In this document: piece by piece, positions 1,740 through 56,933 of the stretch
How positions within the stretch are numbered: the stretch's first letter is position 1
Layout: the number at the start of each line of letters is the position of its first letter
NCBI RefSeq assembly: GCF_050920415.1
Contig: NZ_CP169309.1
Length of the DNA stretch: 64,000 nucleotides
Direction: 5' to 3' (one strand)
Source: Escherichia coli
Lineage (GTDB): Bacteria > Pseudomonadota > Gammaproteobacteria > Enterobacterales > Enterobacteriaceae
The notes under the pieces: model-generated
Seen by the model: the letters and a program-made list of their open reading frames with translations, nothing else
Told to the model about the DNA's origin: nothing
Databases searched by the model: none
Position numbers and translations under genes: made by a program

Positions 1740-4700
1740 TTACTGCGCCTGCACGCGCAACTCTGCTGCGCTACGACTACGGTGACCCAGCAGTGCTTTT
1801 ACATCACTGGACTTCGGTTTAACCAGCGCAAATTTCGTGGCGAAGGTTGACCAGTTAGCCAGAATCTCTTCACCACGCTGGGAACCGGTATGCTGAACAT
1901 GCTCGGTGATAAGACCACGCAGATGCTCTTCATGGATCGCCAGGGAGTCAACGCTTAAGACCTCGACCAGTTCCGGGTTAACGCGTTTGCGGAAATCGCC
2001 GCTTTCATCGAGAACGTAAGCGAAGCCGCCGGTCATGCCCGCGCCGAAGTTAACGCCGGTTTTACCCAGAATACAGACAATACCGCCCGTCATATATTCA
2101 CAGCCGTTGTCGCCAATGCCTTCTACCACGGTGATAGCACCGGAATTACGCACGCCGAAACGTTCACCCGCGCGGCCTGCGGCATACAGACGACCACCGG
2201 TCGCGCCATACAGGCAGGTATTGCCGATAATGCTTGCTTCATGGCTGCGGAAGGCTGAGCCAACCGGAGGACGAATGGCGATTAAGCCGCCCGCCATGCC
2301 TTTACCGACATAGTCGTTGGCATCACCGGTCAGGTACAGTTCCACGCCGCCCGCGTTCCACACACCGAAGCTCTGGCCTGCGGTGCCGTTGAAGTACGCT
2401 TTAATCGGATCGGCTGCCAGCCCCTGATCGCCGTGCGTCTGGGCGATATAGCCCGAAAGCGATGCACCCACGGAACGGTCGGTGTTGCGAATATCGAACC
2501 AGAAGGTTTTGCTCTGACGCTCATCGACAAACGGTTTTGCCTGTTGCAGCAACTGCGCGTTTAGCAGGCCATTATCAAACGGCGGGTTGTTTTCGGTACA
2601 GTAGAGCGCCTTACCTGGATGCGGCTCGGCAGTCTCCAGCAGCTTCGACAGCGCCAGTTTCTGCTGTTTGGCGGTGAAACCGTCCAGCTCTTTGAGCAGG
2701 TCGGTACGGCCAATCAGATCCACCAGGCGCGTTACGCCCAGTTGCGCCATCAGCTCGCGGGTTTCACGGGCGATAAATTCAAAGTAGTTGGTCACTTTGA
2801 ACGGTAAGCCGTGATAGTGGTTCTTACGCAGTTTGTCATCCTGAGTTGCTACACCGGTGGCGCAGTTGTTCAGGTGGCAGATTCGCAGGTATTTACAGCC
2901 GAGCGCCACCATCGGGCCAGTGCCGAAGCCGAAGCTTTCTGCGCCGAGAATCGCCGCTTTGATGATATCGACACCTGTTTTCAGGCCGCCATCGACCTGC
3001 AAACGGATCTTATGACGCAAGCCGTTGGCAACCAGCGCTTGTTGTGTTTCAACAAGCCCCAGTTCCCACGGGCAGCCTGCGTATTTCACCGATGAAAGCG
3101 GACTTGCGCCAGTGCCGCCGTCATAGCCTGCGATGGTGATTAAATCGGCATAAGCTTTCGCTACACCTGTGGCGATGGTACCAACGCCCGGTTCGGACAC
3201 CAGCTTCACGGAGATCATCGCTTTCGGGTTGACCTGCTTGAGGTCGAAAATGAGCTGCGCTAAGTCCTCGATAGAGTAGATATCGTGGTGCGGCGGCGGG
3301 GAGATCAGCGTCACTCCGGGCACCGAATAGCGCAGTTTGGCGATGTAAGGAGTGACTTTGTCGCCCGGCAACTGACCGCCTTCGCCCGGCTTCGCGCCCT
3401 GGGCGACTTTAATCTGAATGACGTCAGCATTGACCAGGTACGCCGGAGTAACGCCGAAGCGACCAGAAGCCACCTGCTTGATGCGCGACACTTTGTTAGT
3501 GCCGTAGCGCGCCGGATCTTCACCCCCTTCACCGGAGTTCGAGTTACCGCCGATGCTGTTCATCGCTTCCGCCAGCGCCTCGTGGGCTTCCGGGCTTAAC
3601 GCGCCGATAGACATCGCAGCAGTATCGAAGCGTTTAAACAGTTCGCTTGCCGGTTCAACATCAGCAATGTTGACCGCGTTTTCACCCGGTGTAATTGCCA
3701 GCAGATCGCGCAGCGTGGTTGCCGGACGTTCATTAACCAGCTTCGCGTATTCCTGATAGTCGCTATACTCGCCGCTCTGTACCGCCTGTTGCAGCGTGCG
3801 CACCACGTCCGGGTTGTAGGCGTGGTATTCGCCACCGTGCACATATTTCAATAGGCCGCCCTGGCTGATGGGCTTGCGCGCCAGCCAGGCACGTTTCGAC
3901 AGATTCAGCAGATCCTGCTGGAAGTCTTCAAAGCTTGCCCCACCAATGCGGCTGACCGCCCCCTGGAAGCACAGGCCCACTACATCATCGTGCAGACCGA
4001 CCGCTTCGAACAGTTTCGAGCAGCGGTAAGACGCGATGGTGGAGATGCCCATTTTGGACATGATTTTGTACAAGCCTTTGTTGATGCCGTTACGGTAGTT
4101 GAGCATCACGGTACGATAATCTTTGGCAATCGCGTGGGTGTCTACCAGGCGGCCCAGCGTTTCATAGGCCAGGTACGGATAAATAGCCGTCGCGCCGAAG
4201 CCCAGCAACACGGCGAAGTGGTGCGGGTCGCGGGCGCTGGCGGTTTCGACGATGATGTTGGCATCGCAACGCAGGCTTTGATCGACCAGACGAGTCTGGA
4301 TCGCGCCAACCGCCATTGGGGCCGGAACCGGCAGGCGATCTTTAGCGATATTCCGGTCGGAGAGCACCAGCAGCACGGTGCCGCTACGTACCATTTTTTC
4401 GGCTTTGTCGCACAGCTCTTTGACCGTCGATTCGAGCGTGGTTTTAGTGACGTCAAAGGTGATATCCAGTGTATCTGCGCGGTAGTGCTCCTCTTTCATC
4501 GTCGTGAGCTGTTTGAAATCGGAGTAGAGCAGAATCGGCGATTTAAAACTTAAACGGTGCGCCTGGCCCTCTGCTTCACAGAAGACGTTCATTTCACGCC
4601 CGATGCTGGTGGCGAGCGACATAACATGCGCTTCACGCAGTGGGTCGATTGGCGGGTTGGTGACCTGGGCAAATTGCTGGCGGAAGTAATCGTAAATAAT

Positions 4701-53979: not shown

Positions 53980-54864
53980 ATGAAGCCTTTTTTGCGCTGG
54001 TGTTTCGTTGCGACAGCACTTACGCTTGCAGGATGCAGTAATACTTCCTGGCGTAAAAGTGAAGTCCTCGCGGTACCATTGCAACCGACTTTGCAGCAGG
54101 AAGTGATTCTGGCACGTATGGAACAAATCCTTGCCAGTCGGGCTTTAACCGATGACGAACGCGCACAGCTTTTATATGAGCGCGGAGTGTTGTATGATAG
54201 TCTCGGTCTGAGGGCATTAGCGCGTAACGATTTTTCGCAAGCGCTGGCAATCCGACCGGATATGCCTGAAGTATTCAATTACTTAGGCATATATTTAACG
54301 CAGGCAGGCAATTTTGATGCTGCCTATGAAGCGTTTGATTCTGTACTTGAGCTTGATCCAACTTACAACTACGCGCACTTGAATCGCGGGATCGCATTAT
54401 ATTACGGCGGTCGTGACAAGTTAGCGCAAGATGATCTGCTGGCGTTTTATCAAGACGATCCCAATGATCCTTTCCGTAGTCTGTGGCTTTATCTCGCCGA
54501 GCAGAAGCTCGATGAGAAGCAGGCTAAAGAAGTGTTAAAACAGCACTTCGAAAAATCGGATAAGGAGCAGTGGGGATGGAACATTGTCGAGTTCTACCTG
54601 GGCAACATTAGCGAACAAACGTTAATGGAAAGGCTCAAGGCGGACGCAACGGATAACACCTCGCTCGCTGAGCATCTCAGTGAAACCAACTTCTATTTAG
54701 GTAAGTACTACCTAAGTCTGGGGGATTTGGACAGCGCCACGGCACTGTTCAAACTGGCGGTTGCCAACAACGTTCATAACTTTGTTGAGCACCGATACGC
54801 ATTGTTGGAATTATCGCTCCTGGGCCAGGACCAAGATGACCTGGCAGAATCGGACCAGCAATAG
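53980..54864 (+). CDS. nlpI: Outer-membrane TPR lipoprotein NlpI
   Basis: 294-aa ORF with lipobox LAGC and TPR repeats. Confidence 0.96.
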
Positions 54865-54969
54865 CTGACGTACACATCAGCCCGTAATCTTTTTTGATTG
54901 CCATCACCTTAACGGGTGAGGGCGTTGTTGTTCGTTAATACACCTACTTTGAGCCGGTTCACACTTTTC

Positions 54970-55050
54970 AATGAAAATTGCTGATCAATTTCATGATGAG
55001 TTATGTAGACTGGCCGCCATTAATTTTGAGGCACACGTACTACATGGCTG
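54970..55050 (+). CDS. yrbN: Small protein YrbN (26 aa)
   Basis: ATG 54970 to TGA 55050 reads [26 protein letters not shown]; its stop overlaps the deaD start codon. Confidence 0.7.
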
Positions 55051-56933
55051 AATTCGAAACCACTTTTGCAGATCTGGGCCTGAAGGCTCCTATCCTTGAA
55101 GCCCTTAACGATCTGGGTTACGAAAAACCATCTCCAATTCAGGCAGAGTGTATTCCACATCTGCTGAATGGCCGCGACGTTCTGGGTATGGCCCAGACGG
55201 GGAGCGGAAAAACTGCAGCATTCTCTTTACCTCTGCTGCAAAATCTTGATCCTGAGCTGAAAGCACCACAGATTCTGGTGCTGGCACCGACCCGCGAACT
55301 GGCGGTACAGGTTGCTGAGGCAATGACGGATTTCTCTAAACACATGCGCGGCGTAAACGTGGTTGCCCTGTACGGCGGCCAGCGTTATGACGTGCAATTA
55401 CGCGCCCTGCGTCAGGGGCCGCAGATCGTTGTCGGTACTCCTGGCCGTCTGCTGGATCACCTGAAACGTGGCACTCTGGACCTCTCTAAACTGAGCGGTC
55501 TGGTTCTGGATGAAGCTGACGAAATGCTGCGCATGGGCTTCATCGAAGACGTTGAAACCATTATGGCGCAGATCCCGGAAGGTCATCAGACCGCTCTGTT
55601 CTCTGCAACTATGCCGGAAGCGATTCGTCGCATTACCCGCCGCTTTATGAAAGAGCCGCAGGAAGTACGCATTCAGTCCAGCGTGACTACCCGTCCTGAC
55701 ATCAGCCAGAGCTACTGGACTGTGTGGGGGATGCGTAAAAACGAAGCGCTGGTACGTTTCCTGGAAGCGGAAGATTTTGATGCGGCGATTATCTTCGTTC
55801 GTACTAAAAACGCGACTTTGGAAGTGGCAGAAGCTCTTGAGCGTAACGGCTACAACAGCGCTGCACTGAACGGTGACATGAACCAGGCGCTGCGTGAGCA
55901 GACTCTGGAACGCCTGAAAGATGGTCGTCTGGATATCCTGATTGCGACCGACGTTGCGGCCCGTGGCCTGGACGTTGAGCGTATCAGCCTGGTAGTTAAC
56001 TACGATATCCCGATGGATTCTGAGTCTTACGTTCACCGTATTGGTCGTACCGGCCGTGCGGGGCGTGCTGGTCGCGCACTGCTGTTCGTTGAGAACCGCG
56101 AGCGTCGTCTGCTGCGCAACATTGAACGCACTATGAAGCTGACCATTCCGGAAGTAGAACTGCCGAACGCAGAGCTGCTGGGCAAACGCCGTCTGGAAAA
56201 ATTCGCCGCTAAAGTACAGCAGCAGCTGGAAAGCAGCGATCTGGATCAATACCGTGCACTGCTGAGCAAAATTCAGCCGACTGCAGAAGGTGAAGAGCTG
56301 GATCTCGAAACTCTGGCAGCCGCACTGCTGAAAATGGCACAGGGTGAACGTACTCTGATCGTGCCGCCAGATGCGCCGATGCGTCCGAAACGTGAATTCC
56401 GTGACCGTGATGACCGTGGTCCGCGCGATCGTAACGACCGTGGCCCGCGTGGCGGCCGTGAAGATCGTCCGCGTCGTGAACGTCGTGATGTTGGCGATAT
56501 GCAGCTGTACCGTATTGAAGTGGGCCGCGATGATGGTGTTGAAGTTCGTCATATCGTTGGCGCGATTGCTAACGAAGGCGACATCAGCAGCCGTTACATC
56601 GGTAACATCAAGCTGTTTGCTTCTCACTCCACCATCGAACTGCCGAAAGGTATGCCGGGTGAAGTGCTGCAACACTTTACGCGTACTCGCATTCTCAACA
56701 AGCCGATGAACATGCAGCTGCTGGGCGATGCACAGCCGCATACTGGTGGTGAGCGTCGTGGTGGTGGTCGTGGTTTCGGTGGCGAACGTCGTGAAGGCGG
56801 TCGTAACTTCAGCGGTGAGCGCCGTGAAGGTGGTCGTGGTGATGGTCGTCGTTTCAGCGGCGAACGTCGTGAAGGCCGCGCGCCGCGTCGTGATGACTCT
56901 ACTGGTCGTCGTCGTTTCGGTGGTGATGCGTAA
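55044..56933 (+). CDS. deaD: Cold-shock DEAD-box ATP-dependent RNA helicase DeaD (CsdA)
   Basis: ATG at 55044 ([21 protein letters not shown]...) gives 629 aa; Q-motif, Walker [13 protein letters not shown] box, C-terminal Arg/Gly-rich repeats. Confidence 0.96.

Follow-up and report, generated by a model that had tools for sequence, protein, structure and literature searches.

yrbN, a 26-codon reading frame overlapping the deaD start codon of Escherichia coli, as a candidate translationally coupled upstream ORF

Background

Termination followed by reinitiation at the overlapping junctions of operon genes is textbook knowledge. A short upstream ORF is involved in the control of iraD in Escherichia coli, where CsrA represses iraD via translational coupling to that ORF (PMC5574718). 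Another described leader is the 5' UTR of the cspA mRNA, a cold-shock RNA thermosensor (Giuliodori et al. 2010, as summarized in the preprint 10.1101/2021.03.08.434349).

The gene for DeaD (CsdA), a major helicase in cold shock, has an autoregulated leader of unusual length, and the effect of yrbN, the short ORF preceding deaD, on DeaD synthesis is a well-defined question of modest value. The transcription start of deaD was placed 838 nt upstream of the gene, and a TATGAT -10 element was mutated (PMC7430678). Ojha and Jain attributed the negative autoregulation of deaD to mRNA stability and Rho-dependent termination and found that it needs the 5' UTR from -101 to -820, the deletion of which leaves yrbN (-73 to +8) intact; they do not mention yrbN and argue that translation contributes little to autoregulation (PMC7430678). 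The yrbN and DEAD-box helicase genes of Erwinia amylovora are co-induced, with log2 values of 3.65 and 3.84.

The same 8-nt overlap between yrbN and deaD that we describe here was reported in the preprint 10.1101/2021.03.08.434349, in which a leader peptide was suggested, the role of yrbN was left open, and the GFP constructs used could not tell whether yrbN affects deaD expression. In the literature consulted, we found no experiment on yrbN-deaD coupling, such as deaD translational fusions in which the yrbN start codon is mutated or a stop is introduced into yrbN. The idea of coupling has already been voiced in the preprint, and what the present analysis adds is a sharpened, testable prediction.

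Results

Position and identity of the ORF

The window, i.e., the whole 64,000-nt stretch of E. coli DNA that was analysed, contains the gene order pnp, nlpI, yrbN, deaD, mtr around the ORF, and the locus is part of the E. coli rimP-nusA-infB-rbfA-truB-rpsO-pnp region. The sequence and the ORF list agree on an ATG-started yrbN ORF of 26 codons plus TGA. An earlier note on this DNA had described the ORF under this name and with its exact peptide, and the sequence, RefSeq, the NF033440 model and an exact look-up all bear this out; only its position, given as 54970-55050, was off by one (Table 1). The overlap of the yrbN stop with the deaD ATG was also described correctly. The deaD ATG (55044-55046) and the yrbN TGA (55049-55051) both lie inside the 8-nt sequence ATGGCTGA, the first base of the UGA being 5 nt downstream of the first base of the AUG, and deaD is read in the +1 frame relative to yrbN. 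On DNA that is 100% identical, RefSeq places the two genes at corresponding coordinates (2612-2692 and 2685-4574 in locus L001), with the 8-nt overlap included.

Of 5426 complete E. coli genomes, 5425 match the 261 bp spanning yrbN with an identity of 99% or more. The NCBIfam equivalog model NF033440 (small_YrbN) matched residues 1-26 of the peptide over model positions 1-26 of 26, with 76.3 bits against a cutoff of 33 (E = 9.4e-22), and the exact-sequence look-up led to the YRBN_ECOLI cluster ("MULTISPECIES: protein YrbN"; UniProt C1P618), while a Pfam search with the peptide returned no domain. Identical peptide, position between nlpI and deaD, and 8-nt overlap identify the ORF as the same gene as yrbN of E. 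coli K-12 (b4685; C1P618; NF033440). Tagged YrbN was reportedly detected by Hemm and colleagues. The label "yrbN_PAIR_0" in PMC6001520 was set aside, as it probably denotes another ORF, likely YnfR. Thus, the yrbN-deaD arrangement is already known, with gene, position and overlap present in databases and in the preprint cited above. The earlier note had also called the ORF too small for gene callers and easily missed. This is true insofar as many DeaD entries, of 646 or 651 aa, are extended through yrbN; against it stand the dedicated NCBI model, the annotation "yrbN: protein YrbN" in all 15 RefSeq E. coli records listed, and the variants from Klebsiella, Kosakonia, Cedecea (25 aa) and Yersiniaceae that already bear the name YrbN in public databases.

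Table 1 Features of the yrbN-deaD region (positions in the window)
Feature	Position	Strand	Basis
Promoter-like TTTATA-16-TATGAT inside nlpI	54171..54198	+	Sequence; matches the published deaD promoter (PMC7430678)
Non-coding block TTTGAGCCGGTTCACACTTTTCA, nearly invariant, just 5' of the yrbN ATG; contains segment 1 (54951-54966)	54948..54970	+	0-2 changes per site on the tree
yrbN coding sequence	54971..55051	+	RefSeq WP_010723222.1 "protein YrbN" at the same position; YRBN_ECOLI
Hypervariable yrbN codons 3-6, apical loop of predicted hairpin 1:2	54977..54988	+	28 haplotypes
Core (segment 2) GAGTTATGTAGACTGGCC, yrbN codons 10-15, nearly invariant including synonymous sites	54998..55015	+	Conservation; can pair upstream or downstream
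Second variable stretch, yrbN codons 17-19, loop of predicted hairpin 2:3, with in-frame 3-nt deletions	55019..55027	+	Alignment
GAGG, SD-like element of deaD in yrbN codons 20-21, 12 nt 5' of the AUG	55028..55031	+	Sequence
Segment 3, deaD initiation region (GG of the SD, spacer, AUG, codon 2)	55030..55049	+	Predicted pairing with segment 2
Overlap ATGGCTGA of deaD start codon and yrbN stop codon, 8 nt	55044..55051	+	Sequence
deaD (csdA) coding sequence, 629 aa, N-terminus MAEFETTF	55044..56933	+	Sequence; RefSeq annotation

Conservation of the reading frame and its stop

From a one-genome-per-species scan, the 80 best-matching loci were kept (DeaD identity of 92-100%), which belong mostly to Enterobacteriaceae, with a few Serratia and Chimaeribacter. 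The 76 loci with enough upstream sequence and the window itself form the comparison set (n = 77; Enterobacteriaceae and Yersiniaceae), which excludes Yersinia, Erwinia, Proteus and Vibrio. The best 120 matches of a full-length DeaD search came from E. coli and Salmonella only.

The yrbN frame is open from its ATG to a stop at +5 or +8 of the deaD ATG in 76 of the 77 sequences. The stop follows the first base of the deaD ATG by 5 nt in 74 species and by 8 nt in two, and the overlap is missing only in one, S. marcescens (L079). Conservation across Enterobacteriaceae, which the earlier note had proposed as a check, covers the yrbN start codon, its reading frame and a stop that coincides with or closely follows the start of deaD. 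When the 77 species are reduced to 44 distinct haplotypes, the yrbN frame is open in 43, and stops occur in both other frames in all 44. It is this conservation that raises yrbN above chance: the surrounding 6 kb contain 91 ORFs of at least 20 aa, so a 26-codon ORF by itself would be no more than a chance occurrence, but neither of the other two frames is open in any haplotype.

The pattern of change inside the ORF points in the same direction. Codons 3-6 have undergone 2-17 inferred changes per site and nevertheless always comprise 12 nt with no indels; in-frame stops are found in none of the 28 haplotypes of this stretch, versus 11 and 12 haplotypes with out-of-frame TAA, TAG or TGA. Deletions within yrbN, found in the Cedecea/Buttiauxella group and in Pluralibacter gergoviae, are of 3 nt, and 1-nt indels were found directly 5' of the yrbN ATG in several lineages. 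The four-fold-degenerate third base of deaD codon 2, which makes the TGA, is T in every species with the +5 overlap. On the tree, we counted one nonsense event in the yrbN frame versus 4.5 expected (Poisson P ~0.06), and 8 versus 11.2 and 31 versus 18.2 expected in the other two frames. When the alignment columns were shuffled, stop avoidance was not significant (P(0) = 0.49), since the composition of the columns already carries the stop avoidance.

Two loci depart from the common arrangement. In S. marcescens (L079, 1401-1540), a +1 insertion shortens yrbN to 19 codons, with the UGA inside the UGAGG of deaD as its stop; the deaD SD-AUG spacer is 3 nt shorter there, and deaD codon 2 is GCA, as in no other sequence. 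In a Serratia-like metagenome contig (L087, SMLE01000074.1), +1 and +2 insertions together restore a 28-codon ORF overlapping deaD, with its stop at +11 of the deaD ATG and with the middle of the peptide read from another frame (VDWPS in place of RLAA). Each of these tests is statistically modest alone; the sequence comparisons together indicate that selection acts on the yrbN frame and on the site at which its translation stops.

Constraint on the peptide

[quoted passage not shown] The tree-based dN/dS was ~0.57 when these nucleotides were read in the yrbN frame and 0.47 and 0.88 when they were read in the other two; for deaD and nlpI, the same method gave 0.29 versus 2.1 and 12 and 0.16 versus 1.1 and 4.2, respectively. 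Changes at codon positions 1, 2 and 3 numbered 69, 54 and 96 in yrbN, versus 49, 5 and 103 in deaD and 29, 2 and 68 in nlpI. Neither dN/dS by frame nor codon-position counts thus detected frame-specific purifying selection on YrbN amino acids in the 77 sequences. The invariant stretches of yrbN are unchanged at synonymous sites too (TTA, AGA, CTG, GCC, GCC), and the invariance runs on into 23 nt of non-coding sequence 5' of the ATG. Conservation is therefore at the nucleotide level, and the peptide sequence, as far as these alignments reveal, is not detectably selected. The earlier note had tied its reading to purifying selection on the ORF in related genomes, and the outcome is divided: the amino acid sequence lacks a frame-specific signal, whereas the open frame appears to be under selection.

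AGA and CTA are rare codons in E. coli. Both occur in yrbN, AGA as codon 13 (55007-55009) and CTA as codon 24 (55040-55042), just 5' of the deaD AUG, and both are essentially invariant, which may reflect pausing of ribosomes or merely the pairing of the RNA.

RNA elements and predicted folds

No canonical SD sequence for yrbN is present in the TTTGAGCCGGTTCACACTTTTCA block, which forms an anti-SD duplex of only -3.9 kcal/mol. Around the SD of deaD, TGAGGCA is invariant in the 77 species and gives an anti-SD duplex of -5.6 kcal/mol. The 12-nt distance between the GAGG and the deaD AUG is longer than optimal in E. coli initiation.

The core of yrbN is predicted to enter two mutually exclusive hairpins, which share it. 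Hairpin 2:3 (-19.5 kcal/mol for the isolated segment 54996-55052, z -3.72) buries the deaD AUG and the GG of GAGG, and 94.8% of its cells stay paired across species. Hairpin 1:2 (-18.5 kcal/mol, z -2.44), in which the core pairs with 54951-54966 and which coincides with the RNAalifold consensus, encloses the yrbN AUG. When both arms are present, the two folds differ little in energy (-25.0 versus -23.3 kcal/mol at 37 C), and in E. coli as in the other species the ensemble is divided between them. By prediction, the start regions of deaD and yrbN rank as the two least accessible among the 51 genes of the locus; that of deaD is the lowest, with an unpaired probability of its AUG of 0.00.

Sites paired in either fold changed 0.59 times on average versus 3.98 for unpaired sites (p = 3e-6). 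Part of this contrast is circular in the case of the RNAalifold structure; when the single-sequence hairpin was taken by itself, the association was not significant (p = 0.10). Neither hairpin showed covariation across species, because all pairs are invariant or changed on one side only, and a C-A mismatch stands opposite the deaD AUG in 9 of 50 distinct sequences. The 141-nt region overall folds no better than its shuffles (z -0.22). In ensemble predictions, the two folds did not depend on temperature (37 versus 15 C), while constrained energies shifted slightly toward the deaD-occluding fold. An Rfam scan of 54000-55300 reached at best 14.6-16.9 bits, versus gathering thresholds of 50-100, and placed no hit in the yrbN region. 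We regard the two modelled folds as plausible.

Two further elements were noted upstream, within the deaD leader. The spacer between nlpI and yrbN contains a hairpin at 54900-54923 (GCC-AUCACC-UUAAC-GGGUGA-GGC; -13.6 kcal/mol, z -3.70), the five central pairs of which are kept in 77/77 species around a variable loop. One of its pairs is A-U in 71 species, G-C in two (a compensatory change) and G-U in four; another is C-G in 63 and U-G in 14. In addition, the end of nlpI (~25 nt) and the ~9 nt that follow its TAG (GGCAGAATCGGACCAGCAATAGCTGACG; 54838-54873) are almost invariant, synonymous sites included, while nlpI shows the usual third-position variation further 5' of its end. The alignment suggests an RNA-level constraint imposed by the overlapping deaD leader.

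Place of yrbN in the deaD transcript

The published start site at -838 falls at window position 54206, which means that most of the deaD leader overlaps nlpI. yrbN forms the 3' end of this 838-nt deaD/csdA leader and lies inside the deaD mRNA. A search for terminator-like sites (hairpin plus U-tract) in 54100-55150 found none, including between nlpI and deaD.

Discussion

What, then, could keep a frame open while leaving its peptide free to change? The reading toward which we lean is that yrbN is a translated upstream ORF that is translationally coupled to deaD and is layered on a conserved RNA element. Coupling appears the most plausible function because the span and frame of the ORF are conserved rather than the peptide, because the deaD start is predicted to be the least accessible of the locus, and because of the spacing of its GAGG. 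The deaD initiation region would be poor for direct ribosome entry, with the GAGG 12 nt from the AUG and with the AUG and the GG of the SD sequestered by a hairpin with yrbN codons 10-15. Ribosomes starting at the yrbN AUG would read through the 5' arm of this hairpin and melt it, stop at the overlapping UGA, 5 nt beyond the A of the deaD AUG, and re-initiate on deaD. The act of translating yrbN would then matter, and the peptide would not. The coupling itself is what we infer, as are efficient translation of yrbN, formation of the hairpin and dependence of deaD synthesis on yrbN. Counting against coupling, yrbN has no recognisable SD and a start region of low predicted accessibility, and Ojha and Jain account for deaD autoregulation without yrbN. 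The kept frame and stop, the free peptide and the invariant RNA blocks with their two folds together lead to one prediction: a nonsense codon introduced into codons 3-6 should lower DeaD synthesis.

More tentatively, the last ~100 nt of the deaD leader could constitute a bistable RNA switch built around the core, with the peptide-indifferent yrbN as its actuator. The core may pair with the conserved block 5' of yrbN instead of with the deaD start, which would give a toggle exposing one start codon or the other. Ribosome loading on yrbN would then determine if the deaD AUG becomes unmasked and is used again, and might also govern the access of Rho to the transcript. If true, the switch would place translational control on top of the published autoregulation of this cold-shock helicase by RNA stability and Rho.

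An important question is whether translation of yrbN is needed to explain its conservation at all. The conserved object might be an RNA element of the deaD leader, be it a structure or a site for ribosomes, DeaD, RNases or Rho, with yrbN incidental to it and translated either to no useful extent or without consequence for deaD. We consider this rather unlikely, although much of the evidence is compatible with it: the invariance includes synonymous sites and the 23 non-coding nucleotides upstream, neither dN/dS nor codon positions single out the yrbN frame, the variable sites fall in predicted loops, yrbN lacks an SD, conservation is as high elsewhere in the leader (among others, in the 3'-terminal part of nlpI and in the hairpin with a compensatory change), and the published regulation of deaD acts at the RNA level. 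However, a loop need not avoid in-frame stops, yet the 28 haplotypes avoid them in this one frame only, and an RNA element gives no reason for a loop of exactly 12 nt or for deletions of 3 nt only. Nor does it account for the stop-making wobble T of deaD codon 2, which is kept everywhere except where yrbN ends early, or for the compensating indels that restore the frame in L087. The preprint 10.1101/2021.03.08.434349, moreover, cites Hemm et al. 2008 as having reported yrbN as a small-protein gene, which likewise speaks against an incidental ORF.

A functional small protein, one that might act together with DeaD or the cold-shock machinery, with the overlap serving merely for co-expression, seems to us less probable still. 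Its central 10-residue and C-terminal EA-V-HG motifs are nearly constant across Enterobacteriaceae, and a curated equivalog family (NF033440) exists. It is stated in general terms in PMC6001520 that many operon small proteins act with their neighbours. Against this, the nucleotides of the constant residues are invariant at synonymous positions too, so protein-level selection is unnecessary to explain them. Residues 3-6 and 17-19 are free to change, substitutions are nearly as frequent at second as at first codon positions, L087 replaces RLAA with the out-of-frame VDWPS, and L079 is cut to 19 aa; there is also no Pfam domain.

The earlier note had further allowed for control of the leader-peptide type. 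Classical attenuation, in which ribosome stalling would choose between a terminator and an antiterminator before deaD, is highly improbable and was rejected, even though two mutually exclusive hairpins share a segment inside yrbN and the rare codons AGA (13) and CTA (24) are invariant: no terminator-like hairpin with a U-tract was found in 54100-55150, yrbN ends inside deaD and thus leaves no room for one, no run of codons for a single amino acid that could be regulatory occurs in yrbN, and the published autoregulation, including its Rho-dependent part, maps further upstream, outside yrbN. That the region instead encodes additional N-terminal residues of DeaD, as in the forms of 646 or 651 aa, is barely credible and was likewise discarded, because, although in E. 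coli 23 codons 5' of deaD are free of stops in its frame and include ATG ATG (54993-54998) and TTG (54978), although many database entries begin at ATG 54993 or TTG 54978, and although "SYVDWPP" looks conserved (an appearance due to nucleotide invariance), an in-frame stop lies within 11 codons 5' of the deaD ATG in 9/77 species, 17/77 have no upstream in-frame ATG at all, and both RefSeq and the NCBIfam model start deaD at MAEFETTF. The start of the 646- and 651-aa entries was therefore probably mis-called, and the yrbN region would account for the wrong extended N-terminus of DeaD in many database entries.

Coupling as we propose it for yrbN and deaD can be compared with three kinds of described systems. 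Like deaD, cspA has a long cold-shock leader that can fold in alternative ways and so leave the start region open or closed, the folds of deaD being predicted; cspA differs in that it has no upstream ORF, and the predicted yrbN-deaD folds show no ensemble temperature dependence between 37 and 15 C. The iraD leader resembles that of deaD more directly, since both are long and contain a short ORF that, when translated, is proposed to supply the main gene with ribosomes; for iraD, coupling was shown by experiment, whereas for yrbN-deaD it is a proposal drawn from the features set out above. Finally, ordinary operon genes overlap through ATGA or, in folP-glmM of the same chromosomal region, through ATGNNTGA, which has the same 8-nt start/stop geometry as yrbN-deaD (L082, 22014-22021, not colinear with the window there), and overlaps of 1 and 4 nt occur nearby in mlaC-mlaB, rbfA-truB and lptC-kdsC. 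As folP and glmM are ordinary genes, the geometry as such is common; what distinguishes yrbN-deaD from such junctions is that its upstream partner is a 26-codon ORF, free of detectable protein-level constraint, that ends an 838-nt leader.
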